Shown here: one piece after another, positions 12,525-53,311 of the stretch | Layout: each line of letters begins with the position of its first letter | Numbering within the stretch: position 1 is the stretch's first letter | From: a virus | Taxonomy: Duplodnaviria; Heunggongvirae; Uroviricota; Caudoviricetes | Virus record (IMG/VR): IMGVR_UViG_2579778660_000001 | DNA length: 64,000 bases | Strand: one strand, 5' to 3' | Made by a program: the position numbers and the translations under genes | Notes under the pieces: model-generated | Databases searched by the model: none | Told to the model about the DNA's origin: nothing | What the model saw: only the letters and a program-made list of their open reading frames with translations

Positions 12525-12553
12525 TGATCTTCCATGTTTTCAGGCTTATATTC
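12525..12553 (+). promoter_or_regulatory. candidate sigma70 promoter (TTGATC - 17 bp - TATATT) driving the c4/icd-like region
   Basis: Good -35/-10 hexamers with 17-bp spacing upstream of a 240-bp non-coding structured segment. Confidence 0.4.
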
Positions 12554-12559
12554 ATGCCG

Positions 12560-12790
12560 TCGTAGCAAATTCTGCGACCAGGTTTGACAGCCTGAATGTT
12601 AGTGCGGACAACCGCAGATTTCCGATATTGCGGTATTTTTGTGTCCGTAAACCGCGTTACGCCCGAATTATGGTGGGGCGTGATGGGGAGGCTTCGGCCT
12701 GCTGGTTTCACTAACGCCAGTCTGTCAACCCTGTCACGTCCTGCCACCTGTTTGACAGCGGGTAGCAGGTTGTTAAACCTGTTAGTGAGG
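12560..12790 (+). ncRNA. candidate c4-like antisense regulatory RNA region
   Basis: No credible ORF; direct repeats gtttgacagc at 12572 and 12751 with complementary ctgtcaac at 12721; a UUCG tetraloop hairpin (aggcttcggcct); immediately 5' of an Icd-like ORF, as in the P1 immI arrangement. Confidence 0.35.
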
Positions 12791-12798
12791 CCGTAACT

Positions 12799-13023
12799 AT
12801 GGTTAATGCCAATCCTTGCTCACGTCCAGAATTCATCTGGCGTTTCCACTCCCTGCAAAAACACTGCGATCACTTCGCAATTGCCGCAACCGAAAAAGAA
12901 GCCCGTTCTCTGATCCCTGATCAGCATGGTGTTCTTACTGGTCGTTTCTCTACTTCCCCACAACCAAACACTAATCCCTGGTATCGCAATATTACCAATC
13001 CCAGCATTGCGGAGGCACACTGA
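12799..13023 (+). CDS. Icd-like small protein (cell-division-inhibitor family), 74 aa
   Basis: Motif PEFIWRFHSLQKH...AATEKEARS; a diverged paralogue at 51993-52190; translationally chained (TGATG) to downstream small ORFs. Confidence 0.4.
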   Translation: MVNANPCSRPEFIWRFHSLQKHCDHFAIAATEKEARSLIPDQHGVLTGRFSTSPQPNTNPWYRNITNPSIAEAH

Positions 13024-13142
13024 TGGATATCTGCCTTCATGAATGCTTTTAACCGGATGATGTCGGAGGCTGAGCACCGAGGAAAACGCTGGTATCACCC
13101 CAAAATGGGGCAATTCCAGGTGATCGGTTGGGGAGGTGAGTG

Positions 13143-13340
13143 ATGGACATCATGCAGGCGGTAAAAAAAATCAGGGAAGAACAGGCTGAAGTGTGCCGCC
13201 GTAAAGCATGGAGTGTTGGTGTATGGGCCTGGCCTGATAATTACTCTACTACCGGATGGTTTTGTATTAATGGACTCCAGATCCGGGAAGTTGATTTATC
13301 GACGGCTGATATAGTCGGTAATGATTGGTTCGTGACTTGA
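13143..13340 (+). CDS. DUF2829-like small protein, 65 aa
   Basis: GGAGGTGAG RBS with ATG at 13143; motifs A.VCRRKAW and C-terminal GNDWFV; occupies the slot where an antirepressor would be expected. Confidence 0.4.
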   Translation: MDIMQAVKKIREEQAEVCRRKAWSVGVWAWPDNYSTTGWFCINGLQIREVDLSTADIVGNDWFVT

Positions 13341-13932: not shown

Positions 13933-16900
13933 GTGAAAATAACATTCTCCATACCCTCTCAACCGTACCGCATAGCGGATTTTTTACGGTTTAGAGGGGG
14001 TAATCCTTTGGATAAACTACTTCATTCAATCAGTGAAGCTTCCAGCTTAGGCGAACTGATTGAAATTGTTAGTCGGTTGCATAAATTACGTGCTGTTGCG
14101 ACCTTTGGCGTTAAGAAAGTCGATGGTGTCAGCATTCAAAAAACACGGCGGGCAGCAAACAACGCCGCAGTAGAGCTTCTTAATTCCCTTCCGCCCGGCT
14201 TCGATGGGGCGAAATTAACTGACGAACAGCGTCAGATTCTTGCCGGGTATACCGGTGAAGGCGGCCTGACAGATGGTGAGGGCAGCCAATACGAATACTA
14301 CACGCCACAGTTTATGGCTGAAGGTATATGGGATCTGTTTGCTGACTACGGTATTGATGGCGGGCACGTACTGGAACCATCAGCGGGCACAGGTATTTTC
14401 CAGGAGACAAAACGACAGGGCATGATAATGACCAGCGCCGAACTGTCTCCGATTTCCGGTCGAATAAACCAGCTTTTGCACCCGGAAGACGATGTGAATA
14501 TCGGGGCGTTTGAGGCGCTGGCGGCGAAAGACGCAATGTATGATCACGCTGTTGGTAACGTACCGTTTGGTGAAGGGCGTTCCGGTGTCGCCGGGCTTGA
14601 TCCGGCATATGCAAACGAGAAGAACGTTGGCAATTACTTTGTGCTGCGCACGATCGACAAGGTTAAGCCTGGTGGGCTTATCGTATTGGTGGTGCCGAAT
14701 GGCATGACCGATGGTACGAAATATAAAAAATTGCGCGATAAAGTCAGCCGTAAAGCGGAATTTTTGGGCGCACATCGTATGCCTTCCGGTACGTTCAGCG
14801 AATCCGGTACAGATACCGTGGTGGACGTATGGGTATTGCGTAAACACCCGGAAACCTTCCTGGAGATGATCCCCGACACGGATGATTCAACACTCAAATC
14901 GGCAAACGTCCTTTGGGATACCTTCCTCAAAGGAAAATGGTTTACAACCGAAGGGAAGCGATTTGTTTACGGCGACATGGAACGTACCAGCTTCCGCAAT
15001 ACCCTGGTGGTGAAAAAGGACGGTCGTGTATCCAATGAGTCGATGAAAACCGCGCTATCTCGTCGCTTTGATAGTCGCATCAATTGGGATTTGCTCGGCG
15101 TAACTACTCAGGCATGGCAGGGCGCGAAAGTGGGCGATAAACGCCTAGTAGGCGGCATCTGGCATGAGTTTGATGGCCTGAAATGGGTCAAGGACACGAC
15201 AACCAAATCCTCCGCGCTTGATGTAAGTCGATATGGTGTTTCGACATTCGGTGATCTGCAAACAACGTTCCAATCAACAAACGGCATTCTGGCTCTGTCA
15301 TGGGGGCAGATATCCGCGATCGCTTCCGACTATCCATCGGTTATCAGTGATGAAGTAGCGGCAATGATTCGCTTTGCTGGGAAACAACGCGAAAAAGACC
15401 GTGAGCGCATTATGCGCGGTGCGCTGATCGGGCAACTTATCAATAAAGCGCTGGATAAGCGTAACCTTGGTGAAAACGTCGATGATGAACTGGCTGATGC
15501 CGCACGTCTGACGGCTGCCGAAGTTGCTAAATATGGCCCACCACACGCCATTAAGCTAAACGACATTACCGAAGCGGGCGCGAAGAACTGGCTGACATTC
15601 ACCGGGAACGTCAATCAGGACGGTGAAGCATCCGATCTGCTGTCCGGACGGCTTGATGTTAGCAAAGGGGCTGCTGGTATTGATTTCACTCGTCCGGAAC
15701 AGGTTGTGACACACCTTTTCAGCGATGTTGCCCTTAATCCTATCAATCTTGATGACTTCCGCGAGGCGTTTAAAGGCGAACTGCCAGAAGACGACGATCA
15801 AGCACTGGAATACCTGGCGAAATTCGACGATATCGCTATTGATGGATATGGTTGCCTGCTACCGATGGGCCGTGCCACTAGCGGTGATATTAAATCAAAA
15901 GTGGCACTGCTGGTGGGCTGGCGAGACGCGTCCACAGGAGAGCGGAAGGCCAACTTTGAGCGCCAGCTTTCAAAAATCGAAGAGAAACGCACGTTTACAC
16001 CGCTGAACAAAGTCACGGTAAACCTTAACGCACGGTGGTTGGATCGCCGCCTGATAAAAGAGTTCCTGGCAGAGCAGGGCTATGACGAGTTTAAGTATAC
16101 AGAACCCGACCTTAAGGTTGAGAACGGCATTCTGGTATCCCCGGACGATTACGAAGGTAAGGACGGGGTATTTACTGGCTACCAGCTACGAACCGTAAAC
16201 GGCAAAAACGGGAACGAGTTCAAGAAAGCGAATAACAAAGATGGCTTCCTGAATCAGCTTGAGAACTACCTGAACGGTGTTAAACCGCGCGGACAGAACG
16301 CTAACGAGTACCTGGACAAAATCGCCCAGCTTGAGACGAGTTTTAACGACTGGTTAAGAACTCACCCGCAGGCAGACCAGATCGCCCGCGATTATAACGA
16401 CGCCTTTAACGGTTATATTCCATTTACCCATTCAGACGCACCCCTGGGGCTTGAAGGCATCAGCGGGAAACGTATACCGCTTTCTTACCAGAACGAAGAA
16501 GTTCGTCGTCTGTCGGAAGATGGGCGCGGGATTATGGGATTCGGAACTGGTTTGGGTAAAACGACGACCGCGCTGGCACTGGAAGCCTATAACTTTGAAA
16601 CCGGGCGAACCAAACGTACCTGTATCGTTGTTCCAAAGGCCGTATACCAGAACTGGTATCACGAGGCACAGAGCTTCTACAGTGCAGATGCCTTCGCCAA
16701 TATGATGTTTATCGGTCTGGACGAAGTGCGCGATGGTGACGGAAATATTCAGACTGCCCCAGTGCTCGACCAGGACGGCACCCCGCGACTTGATAACGAC
16801 GGCAATCCGATCACCCGTAATGTTGTTAAAGAATCCGCCAGTGCCGTTATCGCTCAACGCATGAACATGATCCCATCGTCGAACTGGCGAACGGTCATCA

Positions 16901-19900
16901 TGACAAAAGAGCAGTTCGCATCTATCCCGTTGCGCGATGAAACCATCGGAGAAAACTCACAGCAGGCTGTCTTTAATGCCGCCGAAATGGGGCGTCTTGA
17001 CCTGGCGTCAGGCAAGCACCGTGATGCGCAGAAGAAGAACAAGATTAAGGACCAGGCCGCGAATACCGGTACAGCGAAGAAGCAGAATATCCCGTACTTT
17101 GAGGATATGAACTTCGATAGCGTAATTGCCGACGAAGGGCACAACTACCGCAACTCCTTTGGTGCCGGGCGTGAAGCGGGGCAACTGGCATATTTACCTA
17201 ATCCGGCGGTATCCAAAATGGCCCGTGACATGGCTGTAAAAGCTGCGTACATGATGAAACGTCACAATGGGCGCGGCGTCGTAATGCTGACAGCAACTCC
17301 GCTGGTTAATAGCCCTATTGACGCCTTCAACATGCTGTCAACGGTGATCCCTCAGCACGAGTGGATGCACATGGGGATTATTACCCCTGACGACTTTGTC
17401 CGAGTGTTCGGTAAAACAGCCACTGTTCAGGTCCAGAAAATTTCTGGCGAAGTGGAAGAGAAACAGGGGCTGGTGGGCTTCCAGAACCTTGATGGTCTGC
17501 GTGGCATTTTCCACCGCTGGACAACGCTTAAAACGGCTTCCGATGTTGGTGCAACGGTAAAAATCCCGGATATCGTCGAAAACACCTTGCAGATCCCAAT
17601 GACTCCAGAGCAGCAAGCAGCTTATGAAGAGCTTCGTAAACGCGCGCAGGAGTTAAGTCGTGGTGATGACGTCACTGTCGATGATGAAGGCAATATCACT
17701 CGCGGGAAACCGGATGATTTCATTTTCTCTATCATTCGCGACATGGATAAGGTCGCTATCGACCCGGATCTTTACGCCAGCGCTATCACATTCCAGTTCC
17801 CTGTAGAACTTACTGAACAGGTGAAGTCTATAGCTAATAACCTACCAAAAGTGGCTGGTGGGAAAGCGGCAGACGATGCAGAAGAAGCAGAGGAGGATGC
17901 GACCGGAGGCCTGGTCAGTACCCGTACCAGCAAGGTTGTAGCTACAACATTTAGTGAGCATCCAAATCACGTCGAATTGCGTGCCAGCATTGACCTGGAG
18001 GCTGAAATACTCAAGGCAATTGCTGATGCAGGCATCGACATGAAACAGGTGTCACACCCGATCCCGCCTAAGTATGCCGCACTTATCGAGAACCTTCGTG
18101 AAGGGCTTAAGAACGGTAAGCAAATTATCTTTATCGACGAGAAAGCCCAGCACCAGAAACTACGTCGCATCATTGCCAGTGCGTTGCAAATGCCAGAGCA
18201 GGAGATAGGCATTATCAATGCTACGACTGTTAGCCAGGCTGGTGGTGTTAAGCTGAAAAAGGTCAAAAAACCGACCGAACCGACGCCAAACAAAGACGGT
18301 GAATACAAAGAAGGCGCATGGGAAACCTACTACAGTAAACTGGCCCAATATGAGGATTATCTCTCTGCTAAAAATGATGCTGGCCTTGAGGGGATGGAAG
18401 GTATTGCTGCCGACTATAACGAAGGGCGCACGCAAATCATTATCTGTAACAAGAAAGCCGAAGTAGGTATCAACCTGCATATTGGAACGACCGATATTCA
18501 CCACCTGACACTACCCTGGACTCCTGCCAGTATCGACCAACGAAATGGGCGCGGTGCGCGCGTAGGTTCTCCGCAAGAGAAGGTTAATGTTCACTATTAT
18601 TGTGGCAAAGGCACATTCGATGACTTCCGTCTGGATACGCTTAAACGTAAGAAAGACTGGATCAAGATGGTGATGACCTCCGATATGTCAGAGATCGCCA
18701 ATGGTGATGCGGATGACGCTGATGAACGCGCCATTATGCTGGCGGCAAATCCGGAAGAACGACGCGCAATTATGGCTCGTCAGTCGAAAGAACGTGAGGA
18801 ACGCCTGCGACTTAAAGCGCAACGCGAAGCCAATAATGCTCTCGATAACTACCTGAAAGCGGCGAATGCTGCCGGGAAGGATATCGGCATGATGGAGGCA
18901 GAACTGAAAAGCGCGATGGAGCAGGCGCAACGATACCAGAGTGATCTGGATGGACTGATTAAGAGCGGCATCAACAAAAACGGACAGAAATATACGCTTT
19001 CAGCACTAAGCAAAGCTAAAAAAAGAGTGCGTGAATTGCGATTTGCAATCACCAGGGCGAAGGACGCGGATACTGTTATGAAACGCTCTCGTGGTGATGT
19101 GGAGCGTGCTATTAAGTCTGGTGTGCTGGATATCAGTATCGATGTTATTCAGAACCCGCAGGAGTATATGCGCACTGGCAAGAACATCCTGTTGCATAAA
19201 GGTAGTTACTACCGTGCAGTCATTGATGCTGAATACGAGACAACGGCGATTGTACGCGTGACACAAATTGAGGGCGAAAAAGCGCAATACACCTGCCGCG
19301 TCGCCTGGCTGGATAGAGCAAGTCGCAACTCTCGTTCTCCTGGCTCAACCATGACATTACCGTTTGACTCAGTGGTTGAAGCGGTAACATTTGAAGAGGG
19401 GGTGGCTGAATCACGAGAAATAGCGGCACGTGGTGTTCAAAGCCACCAGCTTTCAACCTCTCTTTCTCGCGATCAATTCTATGACGCTATTCGTAGCGGT
19501 GTTATGCGGGTAACTGGGAAAGATCGTGGCGGTTGGCAAGGAGCACCGGATGTAAACTATTGGGCTTATCGTAACGCCAATGGTCAGATTCAAATGGCCT
19601 TTACCTATGGCGGGATGATTGGTCAAAAAATTAGCGCATCTGGAAGTGACGAGATAGCACCTGAACAATGGATTTATCCTGATGTAAACGACGAAGCATT
19701 AAAACGCGAAGTCGCGAAAATCCAGACAGGTGATAACCCACTTCGTATTTCAGAGGCAGAAGGTTTTCTCCGTGCATTGTTTGGCTTCGATTATGAGCAA
19801 GGTATGGAAGCATGGGGCGCTCAGGCCACTATGGATGATGTGGTCAAGGCGTTCGATGGCTGGATGGCAGGGCGCGATCTCTCCGGGCGTTCACTTGAAA

Positions 19901-20850
19901 AAGTGACTCAGGAAGATGTCCGCAGCTTGTTCCGCAAGCCAAATGGAGAAGGCCTGGAAACGTACTGGCGAGGCGTGCTTTCTTTCCGCGATTTCCAGGG
20001 GCGCATGAAAGCCTTCACCAATGGTTCGGAGATTTCGCAGATGTTCGAACAACTGCGAACGTCCAAAATCATAACCAAAATTGAGAAAACACGCATGGCG
20101 CTAAATGCATGGCGTGATGCGCTGTTTGATCAGTACAAAATGCAAAGTGATGCAGATGGTTGGGCGTCACTTGCCTCGTTGGCAGATCAGTCAGTTTACA
20201 GTGCGCAACTAAGCATTTCTAATGCCGATAATCCGCTTGAAACATCTGCAACAGTCTGGATTAAAGCGGGGGCGTTAATTCATGCATTTGAGGATAAAAG
20301 CATTACCCGTGATGATTTCGCAGATGCAGATAGCTTGAATCGTCTTGTCGGGATGGCTATACGCCATGCTAACGCCTTAAAAGCGGGCGGGTATGTGGAA
20401 GAGTTGCCTGATGCTCTGAAATCTGCAACGTGGGATGACTTTGTGTCGCTTAAAAATAGTGGCGCTACGGAGTCAGAGATTGCTGAACGTCTTGCGGCGG
20501 CTAAGACTGAACGGGAAGAACAGGCTGATGCTGCTGAGAACAAGGCTGACGAGGCAGCAAATGATGATTACATTATCGTGGTAAACGATAAGCCTATTCG
20601 CGCCAAAGCACGTGTCCGCGGTCGCTGGTGGAGCGTAAGTGAAGACGCTGGTGCTGTTTATCTCATTGCAGATATGCCCGGATCTTCATCTATTCGCAAC
20701 GCAAAAGATGCCATCAAGAAAATCGGTGGGCGTTTCTGGAACTTCGAAGTTAACCCGGTTGCCGATGTGGACTTTGACCGTCCGGCCTGGATGGTATCGA
20801 CGCGCTATTCAATTGATGAAGTGCGTAAAATCATTGAAGCGGCGGCTTAA
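13933..20850 (+). CDS. DarB-like giant antirestriction protein: N6-adenine methyltransferase fused to an SF2 helicase, 2305 aa
   Basis: SAM-binding motif VLEPSAGTGIF and NPPY-like GNVPFG in the N-terminal part; Walker A GFGTGLGKTTTALA, DEAH-like VIADEGHNY and motif VI QRNGRGAR in the middle. Start codon uncertain (GTG at 13933 or TTG near 14006). Confidence 0.7.
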   Translation: MKITFSIPSQPYRIADFLRFRGGNPLDKLLHSISEASSLGELIEIVSRLHKLRAVATFGVKKVDGVSIQKTRRAANNAAVELLNSLPPGFDGAKLTDEQRQILAGYTGEGGLTDGEGSQYEYYTPQFMAEGIWDLFADYGIDGGHVLEPSAGTGIFQETKRQGMIMTSAELSPISGRINQLLHPEDDVNIGAFEALAAKDAMYDHAVGNVPFGEGRSGVAGLDPAYANEKNVGNYFVLRTIDKVKPGGLIVLVVPNGMTDGTKYKKLRDKVSRKAEFLGAHRMPSGTFSESGTDTVVDVWVLRKHPETFLEMIPDTDDSTLKSANVLWDTFLKGKWFTTEGKRFVYGDMERTSFRNTLVVKKDGRVSNESMKTALSRRFDSRINWDLLGVTTQAWQGAKVGDKRLVGGIWHEFDGLKWVKDTTTKSSALDVSRYGVSTFGDLQTTFQSTNGILALSWGQISAIASDYPSVISDEVAAMIRFAGKQREKDRERIMRGALIGQLINKALDKRNLGENVDDELADAARLTAAEVAKYGPPHAIKLNDITEAGAKNWLTFTGNVNQDGEASDLLSGRLDVSKGAAGIDFTRPEQVVTHLFSDVALNPINLDDFREAFKGELPEDDDQALEYLAKFDDIAIDGYGCLLPMGRATSGDIKSKVALLVGWRDASTGERKANFERQLSKIEEKRTFTPLNKVTVNLNARWLDRRLIKEFLAEQGYDEFKYTEPDLKVENGILVSPDDYEGKDGVFTGYQLRTVNGKNGNEFKKANNKDGFLNQLENYLNGVKPRGQNANEYLDKIAQLETSFNDWLRTHPQADQIARDYNDAFNGYIPFTHSDAPLGLEGISGKRIPLSYQNEEVRRLSEDGRGIMGFGTGLGKTTTALALEAYNFETGRTKRTCIVVPKAVYQNWYHEAQSFYSADAFANMMFIGLDEVRDGDGNIQTAPVLDQDGTPRLDNDGNPITRNVVKESASAVIAQRMNMIPSSNWRTVIMTKEQFASIPLRDETIGENSQQAVFNAAEMGRLDLASGKHRDAQKKNKIKDQAANTGTAKKQNIPYFEDMNFDSVIADEGHNYRNSFGAGREAGQLAYLPNPAVSKMARDMAVKAAYMMKRHNGRGVVMLTATPLVNSPIDAFNMLSTVIPQHEWMHMGIITPDDFVRVFGKTATVQVQKISGEVEEKQGLVGFQNLDGLRGIFHRWTTLKTASDVGATVKIPDIVENTLQIPMTPEQQAAYEELRKRAQELSRGDDVTVDDEGNITRGKPDDFIFSIIRDMDKVAIDPDLYASAITFQFPVELTEQVKSIANNLPKVAGGKAADDAEEAEEDATGGLVSTRTSKVVATTFSEHPNHVELRASIDLEAEILKAIADAGIDMKQVSHPIPPKYAALIENLREGLKNGKQIIFIDEKAQHQKLRRIIASALQMPEQEIGIINATTVSQAGGVKLKKVKKPTEPTPNKDGEYKEGAWETYYSKLAQYEDYLSAKNDAGLEGMEGIAADYNEGRTQIIICNKKAEVGINLHIGTTDIHHLTLPWTPASIDQRNGRGARVGSPQEKVNVHYYCGKGTFDDFRLDTLKRKKDWIKMVMTSDMSEIANGDADDADERAIMLAANPEERRAIMARQSKEREERLRLKAQREANNALDNYLKAANAAGKDIGMMEAELKSAMEQAQRYQSDLDGLIKSGINKNGQKYTLSALSKAKKRVRELRFAITRAKDADTVMKRSRGDVERAIKSGVLDISIDVIQNPQEYMRTGKNILLHKGSYYRAVIDAEYETTAIVRVTQIEGEKAQYTCRVAWLDRASRNSRSPGSTMTLPFDSVVEAVTFEEGVAESREIAARGVQSHQLSTSLSRDQFYDAIRSGVMRVTGKDRGGWQGAPDVNYWAYRNANGQIQMAFTYGGMIGQKISASGSDEIAPEQWIYPDVNDEALKREVAKIQTGDNPLRISEAEGFLRALFGFDYEQGMEAWGAQATMDDVVKAFDGWMAGRDLSGRSLEKVTQEDVRSLFRKPNGEGLETYWRGVLSFRDFQGRMKAFTNGSEISQMFEQLRTSKIITKIEKTRMALNAWRDALFDQYKMQSDADGWASLASLADQSVYSAQLSISNADNPLETSATVWIKAGALIHAFEDKSITRDDFADADSLNRLVGMAIRHANALKAGGYVEELPDALKSATWDDFVSLKNSGATESEIAERLAAAKTEREEQADAAENKADEAANDDYIIVVNDKPIRAKARVRGRWWSVSEDAGAVYLIADMPGSSSIRNAKDAIKKIGGRFWNFEVNPVADVDFDRPAWMVSTRYSIDEVRKIIEAAA

Positions 20851-25284: not shown

Positions 25285-25360
25285 GATGGTGTAGCTCAGC
25301 GGTTAGAGCGGTTGACTGTTAATCAACGGGTCGATGGTTCAAATCCATCCACCATCGCCA
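25285..25360 (+). tRNA. tRNA-Asn (anticodon GUU)
   Basis: Cloverleaf folded by hand: acceptor gatggtg/caccatc, D arm gctc/gagc, anticodon loop CUGUUAA, T loop TTCAAAT, encoded CCA. Confidence 0.85.
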
Positions 25361-25362
25361 AT

Positions 25363-25438
25363 GCCGGTTTAGCTCAGTTGGTAGAGCGCCTGCCTTGTAA
25401 GCAGGATGTCAGCGGTTCGAGTCCGTTAACCGGCACCA
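25363..25438 (+). tRNA. tRNA-Thr (anticodon UGU)
   Basis: Acceptor gccggtt/aaccggc, anticodon loop CUUGUAA, T loop TTCGAGT, encoded CCA; 2 nt after tRNA-Asn. Confidence 0.85.
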
Positions 25439-27452: not shown

Positions 27453-27528
27453 TGGCCCTTTAGCTCAGTGGTTAGAGCTGGCGACTCATAATCGCACGGT
27501 CACCGGTTCAAGTCCGGTAGGGGCCACC
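27453..27528 (+). tRNA. tRNA with anticodon CAU, ileX-like (tRNA-Ile2, lysidine type)
   Basis: Sequence ggccctttagctcagtggttagagc...gactcataatcgc...ggttcaagtcc...ggggccacca closely resembles E. coli ileX (recalled); clean cloverleaf. Confidence 0.8.
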
Positions 27529-50812: not shown

Positions 50813-51388
50813 ATGAAGCAAAGCTATTGGGAGAAACAGACACAAAAAGCCCTGCAAAAACTGGCTGATCCGAAATGGCGGGAGGAACAAAGGGCAAAGC
50901 GTCTTCAGCAAGCTCAACGCCAGCAGCAGCGTGCGCGAGAAAAAGCCGCATCGCCTGAATATCGGCAAAAGAAAATTGAAAAAGCGAAGCAATATGAACA
51001 GCGAAGAAAAGAGAAGGCCGCTTCTGCTCCTGTCAAAAAAACTCGCGCGTCACGCGGCCTGAAAGGCAGAACACTCACAGCAGATGAGCGCCGGATACAA
51101 ACTGCCATCGGTGCTCTCCCCTGCATTGCCTGCCATATGCACGGACAGCATAGCCCTGTGGTATCCCTGCACCACATCTTCGGAAGAACAGCAGAGAACG
51201 CGCATAAATACGTCCTCCCTTTGTGTAAATGGCACCATCAACACGCAGCGCCAGCAGAGATCCGCGAGCAATACCCCTGGTTGGTTCCTGTTCATGCTGA
51301 TGGAAAAATAGGCGGTAAAGCAGATTTCAGGCGGCACAATGCTGATGAAATGACGTTGTATCAGATGGCGATTGAATTGACGAATTAG
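50813..51388 (+). CDS. ref: Ref (recombination enhancement function; HNH-type RecA-dependent nuclease)
   Basis: Basic N-terminal tail with ADPKWREEQ and C-terminal HNH-like Cys/His core CIACHMHGQH...HHIFGR...LCKWHH; alternative TTG start at 50771. Confidence 0.65.
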   Translation: MKQSYWEKQTQKALQKLADPKWREEQRAKRLQQAQRQQQRAREKAASPEYRQKKIEKAKQYEQRRKEKAASAPVKKTRASRGLKGRTLTADERRIQTAIGALPCIACHMHGQHSPVVSLHHIFGRTAENAHKYVLPLCKWHHQHAAPAEIREQYPWLVPVHADGKIGGKADFRRHNADEMTLYQMAIELTN

Positions 51389-51399
51389 TTTTCTAACAT
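51383..51399 (-). promoter_or_regulatory. operator-like site ATGTTAGAAAACTAATT (exact consensus copy)
   Basis: Immediately after the ref stop. Confidence 0.5.
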
Positions 51400-51719
51400 T
51401 TTAAGTTGAATTATAAATTTCTCCGATGTACATTCACTACCGATTGGCACACCGGTCAACTTTTTGAGACAAACTGTATAGTTTTTCGTATTATTGCCGC
51501 CGCCATACCTATGGCGGTGCAATATAGGTGGCTGAAAAGCCCCCGTTGACTCACGGTGTTCCAGCCTTTATTGCGCCGCCACCAGACCGTGGAACAGTCG
51601 ATGGCGGCTCCGAAAGCAAGGAGTCACTACACTATGAACAGCTACTGTCTTTTCCCGTCACTCGTTGTCCGCCACTCACGCGATAATCTGCATTCTTTAC
51701 TCGCGCTGGGGGTGTCAAA

Positions 51720-51887
51720 ATGACCGTTCGCTACCTCAACTTTCAAATCCAGAACATCACTGGCGGTTGCTATGACTGGTTTGTCACTCTCGGAAAAGAA
51801 GTGATCACCGGGAAGCTGGATGAAGTGAAAGCTAAAGCAATGGCCTACGCCTGCAAGCAAGCCCGGAAGAAATCCGCCAAAGCATAA
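51720..51887 (+). CDS. possible small protein, 55 aa, translationally coupled to a 29-aa upstream leader ORF (51634-51722)
   Basis: AAGGAG RBS before the leader ATG; ATGA overlap between leader and 55-aa ORF; not in the track. Confidence 0.3.
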   Translation: MTVRYLNFQIQNITGGCYDWFVTLGKEVITGKLDEVKAKAMAYACKQARKKSAKA

Positions 51888-51992
51888 AATACTGACTTTT
51901 GCGCCCTGGCATTATCGTGGGGTATATTTCTACGGCACCTTAGAAAAACGGGTGCCGGGATTGGAACCTCACGCGGTAGCTCCTTAACTTAG

Positions 51993-52190
51993 TCAAAGGA
52001 GGCTGCCAATATCGCTACTATCCCCACCCCAACTCATTCTGAATTTATCTGGCGTTTCTATTCCTGCCAAAAACACCTGTATATCTGCGTCATGGCTGCA
52101 ACCGAAGCAGAAGCTCGTTCATACCTTCCCCTGGCGGAACGGGGCGTAATTGGTGATAAACAGATACTGGGAAACAGTGGAACTACATGA
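51993..52190 (+). pseudogene. Icd-like paralogue lacking a canonical start codon
   Basis: Translation SEFIWRFYSCQKH...AATEAEARS parallels 12799-13023; AAGGAGG RBS is followed by an ATC codon, and the first in-frame ATG is at 52092. Confidence 0.3.
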
Positions 52191-52274
52191 GGCGGGAGTA
52201 ATTCGTGACCTGATGGAGAATTCCGTTCCCCGCCGCTATCGTGCAGGGAACGGCATCTCCGTGGTTAAAGGTGT

Positions 52275-52667
52275 TTAAAGCTCACCTGCGCGCTGTTTTT
52301 CAAGCACAGATTTAACATTTGGCGCTTTCCCTTTAAAAGAATGGAAAGTGCCACATTTTTCTGTTTTAACCTCGCGCAGAGCTTCGCCGTCGGCGTTCTG
52401 CCATTGATGGGATAATGTCATATCACCGCGAGAAGGAACATCCAGCGAGTACAGCGTGTAAGTTCCCCCCATCTCCGCATACTCCTGGAACACATAGCTC
52501 ATTACGTCAGATTCAGTTTTTCGGTGTGCGTTATCAACCTTATTCCCATTCAGAAATATGGCATCTGGATAGATTTTTATATCAAACCGACCGCACTTAA
52601 CTTGTAAATCTCCGGCGCTCGCGATCAAAGGGAAAGACGCCAGTAAAGCAATAGCCAATCTTTTCAA
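52275..52667 (-). CDS. secreted protein with signal peptide, 130 aa
   Basis: N-terminal MKRLAIALLASFPLIASA signal peptide. Confidence 0.5.
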   Translation of the reverse strand: MKRLAIALLASFPLIASAGDLQVKCGRFDIKIYPDAIFLNGNKVDNAHRKTESDVMSYVFQEYAEMGGTYTLYSLDVPSRGDMTLSHQWQNADGEALREVKTEKCGTFHSFKGKAPNVKSVLEKQRAGEL

Positions 52668-52687: not shown

Positions 52688-53311
52688 TTATTGCCCGTAT
52701 TTTTTACACCATTGCTCTGCCATTTGTTTGGCTAAAGGCCCGGCTACTGCACTGTATTCTGCTGTTTTACTTTGCACACATGAAGCAGATGGTTTTTTAT
52801 TTCGCTGCTCGGTTAGTTTGCGCTCATAAGCCATCATGCTATCGAACCCGGCAATATCACTTTGGCGAAGCATTCCCTTTTTAACCAAAAATTGCTGCCC
52901 CTCTGGCACCAACGCAAGCATAAAAAGAGGTTGCAATAACTCACCTAATCCTTGCTGGCGATACACTTCGAATTGCTGCCATCCCTGACTTAATCTGGAA
53001 AGAGTATCTTTGGTTGAATAACCTGTTTTTGTTATAGCTTTGTCCGTCAGATATGCTGTATATGCAAAAACGCAAAAGTCAGTTTTACCAATAAACTGAG
53101 TTCCAACAGGCCGTAATGGAATGCCCTCCCTCTTGCAAAAGTCCATAATGGCCGCTTGTGAATGAACTCCACCAGCGTTATTCATAACCTGCTGCCCTGC
53201 CCTGAATTGTGCAGGTAACGCAGTTGCATTGGCAGTATTAGCAGATACGCATCCCAACATAGCCGCGAGCGCGGCCCCTAAAGCCCTTAACTTCACTACA
53301 CCATCCTTCAT
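52688..53311 (-). CDS. secreted or periplasmic protein with signal peptide, 207 aa
   Basis: Signal-peptide-like N-terminus; several Cys residues. Confidence 0.5.
   Translation of the reverse strand: MKDGVVKLRALGAALAAMLGCVSANTANATALPAQFRAGQQVMNNAGGVHSQAAIMDFCKREGIPLRPVGTQFIGKTDFCVFAYTAYLTDKAITKTGYSTKDTLSRLSQGWQQFEVYRQQGLGELLQPLFMLALVPEGQQFLVKKGMLRQSDIAGFDSMMAYERKLTEQRNKKPSASCVQSKTAEYSAVAGPLAKQMAEQWCKKYGQ

Follow-up and report, generated by a model that had tools for sequence, protein, structure and literature searches.

A probable relic of a c4-icd-ant module adjoining ref in a D6-like phage-plasmid sequence

In phage P1, full repression of ant requires the C4 antisense RNA and the Icd protein blocks cell division (PMC8198154), and two antisense-RNA/icd regions have already been published for the D6-like plasmids (PMC6799933). 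The C4 and isrK profiles also detect relatives of CI and seqA in satellites (PMC10111431). The D6-like elements carry two tandem modules under C4-type antisense RNAs between ref and mat, and in Escherichia phage D6 ref is immediately followed by the small ORFs orf86 and orf85, the Icd-like orf83, and an overlapping antirepressor of the Rha/KilA type, orf82. The DNA analyzed here (the window, i.e., the whole 64,000 nt stretch of IMG/VR record IMGVR_UViG_2579778660_000001) is, as judged from its sequence, a D6-like phage-plasmid of E. coli, with positions 51300-52400 being 97% identical to phage D6 and 99% identical to several E. coli plasmids of ~89 kb.

In this region, an earlier note had described a second Icd-like frame lacking a start codon and preceded by two small ORFs. 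Comparison with related loci indicated that this frame is in all likelihood the relic of a dismantled c4-icd-ant module (module B) bearing three lesions and that the upstream pair of ORFs belongs to a separate module (module A). The features of the region, together with a further immunity module elsewhere in the window, were as follows.

51406-51434, + strand: putative sigma-70 promoter of module A (-35 TTGAAT, 17-nt spacer, -10 TACATT), read from the sequence
51442-51460, + strand: degenerate a1/b1-like box GATTGGCACACCGGTCAAC followed by a T-run, a weakly indicated terminator-like hairpin
51507-51586, + strand: C4-A, an antisense RNA of C4 type scoring under the Rfam threshold (Rfam RF01695, fold, and covariation)
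51590-51626, + strand: module A leader, with b2-A TGGAACA at 51590-51596, the Shine-Dalgarno (SD) sequence AAGGAG at 51618-51623, and a2-A GAGTCA at 51621-51626
51634-51723, + strand: 29-aa ORF, the short form of D6 orf86, at the icd-A position of relatives and with its frame kept
51720-51887, + strand: orf85, coding for a conserved 55-aa protein and overlapping the 29-aa ORF by ATGA (phrog_7786, E = 1.8e-43)
51935-51955, + strand: first hairpin of the isrK-like/c4-a1b1 element of module B, its sole remnant (alignment A1 and Rfam)
51957-51968, + strand: junction of a 189-bp deletion with the hybrid b1/b2 box GGGATTGGAACC (alignments with relatives)
51975-52007, + strand: predicted SD-sequestering hairpin of the icd-B leader (minimum-free-energy fold; conserved across intact modules)
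52011-52190, + strand: icd-B pseudogene, with ATC at 52011-52013, Icd homology to 52130, and an out-of-frame tail ending in TGA at 52188-52190
52131-52150, no strand assigned: 20-nt filler at the 3' deletion junction, without homology to the IMG/VR locus L021 on either side of that junction
52151-52278, + strand: pmgF-like 3' fragment (last ~42 codons), 99% identical to L021 positions 2228-2355
12546-13023, + strand: the other, P1-like immI module, with c4-a1b1 at 12546-12598, C4 at 12666-12751, and icd at 12799-13023

Intact copies of module B were identified in relatives in the order isrK-like element (b1, a1, and terminator), C4-B, leader with b2/a2, icd, and ant, where icd codes for 71 aa and the overlapping ant for 313 aa of the Rha/KilA type. 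This organization resembled immI of P1/P7 in having a1/b1, C4, a2/b2 at the icd ribosome-binding site (RBS), a small Icd, and an overlapping antirepressor gene; it differed from P1 in that Ant is of the Rha/KilA type instead of Ant1/2 and that the upstream element scores as isrK and has a terminator, unlike c4-a1b1. Between orf85 and icd of D6 and CP125036, the isrK-like element scored 59-62 bits against Rfam RF01394 (gathering score 50), terminator included, and C4-B scored 76 bits against RF01695 (gathering score 45). The parent-like locus L021 was intact throughout, comprising orf86, orf85, the isrK-like element, C4-B, icd (71 aa), ant (313 aa), and a pmgF-like gene (103 aa). The window region occupied the same place adjoining ref as the second c4-icd region of D6 (orf83/orf82) and of pYU39_89, with 92-98% nucleotide identity.

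Against this background, module B of the window lacks C4, the ATG, and ant and has a truncated icd, which sets it apart from P1/P7 immI and from D6, which keeps C4-B, ATG, full icd, and ant. Alignment A1 (D6, CP125036, and CP029365) revealed that 189 bp are missing from the window and CP029365, a segment bordered in intact relatives such as L021 by a 10-nt direct repeat GATTGGAACC whose two copies are the b1/b2 target boxes. The missing segment held the second isrK-like hairpin, the a1 box, the terminator, and the entire C4-B gene. Rfam searching of the window found no C4 between orf85 and icd-B, isrK reached 14.5 bits (gathering score 50), and the upstream duplicate target element (a1/b1, isrK-like) was reduced to its first hairpin and the hybrid b box. 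The target boxes GTCAAAGG and TTGGAAC were retained at the icd-B RBS as perfect complements of the loops of an L011-type C4-B. The start-codon lesion, ATG to ATC (G52013C), was the sole lineage-private substitution in the 174 nt of 51959-52132, the other differences in this interval being polymorphisms common among intact loci. At the 3' side, ~1.28 kb comprising icd from codon 41, ant, and the 5' end of pmgF was swapped for 20 nt; the icd homology ends at 52130 (codon 40), ant (313 aa in L021) is deleted with no antirepressor gene coupled to icd-B, and the pmgF-like fragment matched positions 62-93 of 94 in phrog_7349 and the PmgF-like protein of D6 (BLASTP E = 2e-10).

The frame at 51993-52190 was a genuine Icd paralogue, as the earlier note had proposed: its translation shared 57% identity over 37 aa with the other Icd of the window (12799-13023) and, with ATC taken as codon 1, passed the 25-bit cut-off of the NCBIfam profile NF033153 "phage_ICD_like" at 35.1 bits. 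Membership was scored by NCBIfam instead of Pfam, which contains no Icd family and gave 0 matches. The NF033153 match spanned only profile positions 1-35 of 48, and the conserved Icd C-terminus (profile positions 36-48, motif P..C[IV]F.ARF) was absent. The coordinates of the leader were confirmed, with the frame opening past a TAG at 51993, AAGGAGG at 51996-52002 followed 8 nt further on by ATC, and the earliest in-frame ATG at 52092, 27 codons in. The frame falls short of a full coding sequence opened by a canonical start: it begins with ATC, where every intact relative examined has ATG. The pairing of CTCCTT (51980-51985) with the icd-B SD, suggested earlier as a means of sequestering the RBS, was recovered in the predicted minimum-free-energy fold (-32.1 kcal/mol, z = -2.15); it is not peculiar to this copy, as the same hairpin is common to all intact modules and forms part of the normal C4 target leader. 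The a2-B box GTCAAAGG (51992-51999) lies inside this hairpin and complements, without a mismatch, the loop CCTTTGAC carried by the cognate allele of C4-B.

The frame itself contains no stop or frameshift and its SD is perfect and ideally spaced, for which reason a trickle of AUC-initiated peptide (59 aa if read from ATC) may be made. Initiation at AUC in E. coli amounts to 1-2% of that at AUG (bioRxiv 10.1101/063800), and the icd-B start would be expected to reach only about this level. The evidence spoke against a functional copy under different regulation that initiates non-canonically, with ATG present in all intact relatives, ATC occurring only together with loss of the C4-B gene, the Icd C-terminus, and ant, and PGAP calling the frame from ATC an Icd-like pseudogene "missing C-terminus" in four RefSeq records. 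Comparison of orthologous loci instead favored the other possibility raised in the earlier note, a decaying duplicate, on the strength of the three lesions relative to intact relatives: the reading frame has stayed open in the window, but the ATC is unique to the deletion lineage. Without a cognate repressor RNA, the conserved Icd C-terminus, or a coupled gene downstream, the relic is non-functional. It represents an ordinary pseudogene of a known module kind in a known position, already flagged in RefSeq, and does not qualify as a second active effector of immunity; its value is mostly for annotation and interpretation.

The deletion junction was found in eight other sequenced copies, from five plasmids (RefSeq/PLSDB), one IMG/VR contig, and two metagenome contigs, all of which had ATC and 0 differences to the window over 51959-52132 (174 nt); three more PLSDB plasmids that match the whole region in one piece stand outside this count. 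The plasmid sources of the ATC allele were China, the USA, Thailand, and Japan, and the deleted form occurred in 8/222 complete E. coli genomes having any match. Conversely, ATG was present in all 26 C4-B-retaining IMG/VR loci with the exact leader allele of the window, as well as in D6 and CP125036. No intermediate combining the deletion junction with ATG was found in IMG/VR or the metagenomes. As all carriers represent one clonal allele, the co-occurrence of ATC and the 189-bp deletion counts as a single evolutionary event and not as replicated causal evidence.

The b1/b2 repeats flanking the gap indicated that C4-B was deleted by slippage or recombination between its own duplicated b-target boxes. 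CP125036 and CP125072 have the same icd::pmgF junction and keep C4-B and ATG, from which ant was probably lost first. This order of the three lesions, reached by parsimony, remains provisional and is complicated by the other a-box allele of CP125036 and CP125072, which marks a recombination patch. After the loss of ant, the truncated icd would have been the only remaining product under C4-B control, and loss of the antisense gene would de-repress only this truncated, potentially toxic Icd. With no + strand terminator left, the icd-B frame would also be exposed to read-through from module A. The change of ATG to ATC may have been selected to neutralize a toxic product, making the loss of C4-B tolerable, or may represent neutral decay, two outcomes that a single clonal allele leaves indistinguishable. 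In classical P1 genetics, to our knowledge, loss of c4 is tolerated only with ant inactive, a rule echoed by the decay pattern in the window. The locus is a natural example of the decay of an antisense-controlled toxin/antirepressor cassette, in which the antisense gene appears to have been excised via its own target boxes and the toxic ORF silenced at its start.

The specificity boxes of module B vary among intact loci. The a1 box, the hairpin-2 loop of C4-B (a'), and a2 covary three ways, with the target being either GCAAAAGG or GTCAAAGG; b1, the junction b', and b2 covary as well (TTGAGAC or TTGGAAC), and all four combinations of a-type and b-type alleles of C4-B occur. These loop/target alleles recall the heteroimmunity of P1/P7 (PMC8198154), and the covariation argues that C4-B is, or was, a real antisense regulator. 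The (GTCAAA, GGAA) boxes of the relic identify the partner it has lost as the L011-type C4-B, which pairs with the relic leader of the window over 8+7 nt with a duplex energy of -34.5 kcal/mol. Mutation of the a2 box from GCAAAAGG to GTCAAAGG after the loss of C4-B, which would have re-targeted it to C4-A, was considered and rejected: GTCAAAGG is a common natural allele, and 26 intact loci combine it with an a1 box and a C4-B loop that match.

Upstream of the relic, the 29-aa ORF (51634-51723) and the 55-aa orf85 (51720-51887) overlap by ATGA, as previously noted. Their interpretation as a leader-peptide cassette for icd-B was not upheld: they form the separate module A, and intact relatives have both a terminator and C4-B interposed between the pair and icd. 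The ATGA overlap points to coupling rather than attenuation, and no + strand terminator was detected between 51634 and 52011, leaving no terminator/antiterminator arrangement. The putative promoter at 51406-51434 matches 8/12 consensus positions, under the promoter-scan threshold, and its TTGA and TA..TT recur in E. fergusonii/Shigella, where the upstream region has diverged in other respects (alignment A2). The box at 51442-51460 resembles the b1/a1 boxes of module B and is mismatched to the C4-A loops.

C4-A scored 40.2 bits against RF01695, short of the gathering score of 45, with E = 9.6e-6 over the full-length profile (1-87), and its predicted minimum-free-energy fold displayed the closing stem, two hairpins, and single-stranded junction of the C4 architecture. 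All 13/13 tested pairs were kept in the six sequences of alignment A4, seven of them through compensatory double changes that distinguish the Enterobacter type from that of E. coli, compared to 26-51% paired in slid control alignments. D6 also has the element, as do plasmids of E. fergusonii, Shigella, and E. coli. The Enterobacter version gave no Rfam match at E <= 0.1; its closing-stem sequence is wholly different with pairing retained, and its loop and SD-adjacent sequences differ yet pair (-25.7 kcal/mol). In the window, the junction TGTTCCA and loop TGACTC of C4-A are perfect complements of TGGAACA and GAGTCA. The former box is found 31 nt upstream of the latter, which shares nucleotides with the SD of the 29-aa ORF, and the leader is nearly invariant among the D6-like, E. 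fergusonii, and Shigella loci. C4-A shares with the Rfam C4 (RF01695), isrK (RF01394), and P4 CI-seqA type RNAs its architecture and loops complementary to a downstream ribosome-binding region; it is unlike Rfam C4 in its shorter second hairpin loop and in that the next ORF in the window is the 29-aa ORF and not icd. The most likely role of C4-A is to block translation of the 29-aa ORF through base pairing to the ribosome-binding region of that ORF, a repression that the ATGA overlap would extend to orf85.

The leader, SD, and ATG of the 29-aa ORF are those used by icd-A in the E. fergusonii, Shigella, and Enterobacter plasmids, in which an intact 61-aa Icd-like gene is followed by an orf85 homologue and module B is lacking. 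In the window it carries no Icd motif, and its body displayed no significant homology to icd-A (84/500 and 26/500 shuffles scored at least as well). An origin as an internally deleted icd-A was considered and not demonstrated, the leader, SD, and start alone being in common. The 90-nt frame and the ATGA overlap were conserved in 24/24 D6-type loci while the amino acids drift, which suggests that translation, for coupling, matters rather than the peptide; L005 (pSa1423-160k), a low-quality record with many indels, was left out. The orf85 gene was found in, and confined to, D6-like plasmids (121 of them), with no relatives found in GTDB representative genomes. Its 13 synonymous versus 5 non-synonymous codon differences between the window and E. 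fergusonii indicate, at the level of codon comparison, that it is under purifying selection. A weak DUF3319 match of orf85 fell below the cut-off and was disregarded.

Other explanations for the icd-B frame concern a remaining role of its leader or product. One is that the copy is still functional, a 59-aa Icd variant being made at a low level from AUC and repressed in trans by C4-A. The intact SD, spacing, and open frame agree with this, as does the 6+6 nt complementarity of C4-A to the orphan leader (GTTCCA/TGGAAC and TTGACT/AGTCAA), with boxes 29 nt apart compared to 31 nt in its own leader and duplex energies of -17.6 (orphan) versus -18.7 kcal/mol (own); with the terminator deleted, module A transcription should also read into the relic. 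However, out-of-frame pmgF sequence stands in place of the conserved last third of Icd, AUC works at 1-2% of AUG, no downstream gene relies on icd-B translation, and the cognate C4-B pairs far better with this leader (8+7 nt, -34.5 kcal/mol). The a-box match of C4-A is moreover limited to the GTCAAA allele and absent from GCAAAA-type modules, which argues against a conserved design, and a functional copy is considered very unlikely. A broader proposal, in which each D6-like genome has three C4-type riboregulators (the P1-like C4, C4-A, and C4-B), the last two partly alike in specificity, and the orphan icd-B leader was re-wired to C4-A, permitting the loss of C4-B and leaving the relic as a re-wired antisense target or decoy, draws on the b' core GUUCCA shared by C4-A and C4-B and is regarded as unlikely.

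The transcribed orphan leader might alternatively act as an RNA decoy that titrates a C4-B of the same specificity from a co-resident or superinfecting D6-like phage, modulating its ant. Both its b box and its a2 box have survived unaltered and still complement the C4-B allele of (GTCAAA, GGAA) type, and non-coding target copies are normal in such systems, the natural a1/b1 copies upstream of C4 being examples. Against it, there is no sign of selection: conservation is uninformative because all carriers are identical, and preservation of 45 nt is expected by default in a young clonal lineage, so that a decoy role is judged highly improbable. An origin of ATC and the deletion in faulty assembly or sequencing has next to no probability, being refuted by the identical allele in plasmids from the four countries and in IMG/VR and metagenome contigs. 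The dismantled module B next to a separate module A thus accounts best for the region.

The P1-like immI module of the window had Rfam matches above the gathering score and was 93% identical to P1 c4-icd. Trans-repression of the A or B leaders by its C4 (12666-12751) was considered and rejected, as no complement of at least 6 nt to either leader was present. What is modestly new in the region is the mode of antisense gene loss, the C4-A RNA missed by the Rfam threshold, and the four C4-B allele combinations. The C4-B alleles and C4-A may serve workers on phage-plasmids, as may a further annotation detail: PGAP coding sequence calls named "ash family protein" overlie the C4-B RNA gene.

The P1-like immI module of the window retains both its C4 RNA and icd (context 12546-13340), and its Rha/Roi-type ant carries a clean, out-of-frame internal deletion of 587 bp (window 13024-13140) with the junction ATGGA|TATCTGCC, the intact counterpart being the 708 bp orf18 of D6. 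This junction was absent from all complete E. coli genomes, PLSDB plasmids, and IMG/VR contigs searched, and the P1-like-module ant was retained in the other plasmids of the lineage sharing the 189-bp C4-B deletion. As ant is also gone from module B, the relic c4-icd-ant cassette, both antirepressor genes are therefore missing from the window's element. Further features of the window include:

13933-20850, plus strand: giant ORF of 2305 aa that closely follows the P1-like immI region
25285-25435 and 27454-27526, plus strand: three tRNA genes (Rfam tRNA matches of 65-75 bits)

Two minus-strand ORFs are convergent to the module B relic:

52275-52667, minus strand: ORF of 130 aa with a hydrophobic N-terminus, matching phrog_13864 (a family of unknown function)
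52688-53311, minus strand: ORF of 207 aa with a hydrophobic N-terminus, matching phrog_12786 (a family of unknown function)

With the isrK-like terminator lost, transcription that passes through the relic would enter both of these ORFs in antisense orientation.

The segment deleted from the window includes the counterpart of a 39 aa "ash family protein" CDS annotated by PGAP in CP125036 (locus L002, 3261-3380) and in many RefSeq D6-like plasmids. This CDS overlies the C4-B antisense RNA gene (RF01695, 76 bits, L002 3257-3344), and a search of its translation against NCBIfam gave no hit at E ≤ 0.01; PGAP has probably called a spurious protein on an RNA gene.

Among the relatives, module B of D6 (L001), CP125036, and the loci L011-L037 displayed four C4-B specificity allele combinations, pairing an a-box of GCAAAAGG or GTCAAAGG with a b-box of TTGAGAC or TTGGAAC. 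In each combination the RNA loop co-varies with both target copies. This pattern recalls P1/P7 heteroimmunity, and it implies that the two recognition boxes of C4-B reassort as modules.

The C4-like RNA of the upstream module A (C4-A) also occurs in two Enterobacter plasmids (L042 and L046), where it folds with the same 15-bp closing stem and is followed by an Icd-like gene. An Rfam search of this version (L042 1383-1452; L046) reported nothing even at E ≤ 0.1, yet its fold and context are C4-A-like, such that the Rfam C4 model misses this subclass. Separately, many small indels disrupt DUF4406, orf85 (the 55-aa ORF of module A), and C4-A at the corresponding locus of the Salmonella plasmid pSa1423-160k (NZ_MK356558.1), and these look like errors from an assembly of low accuracy, not like biological decay.
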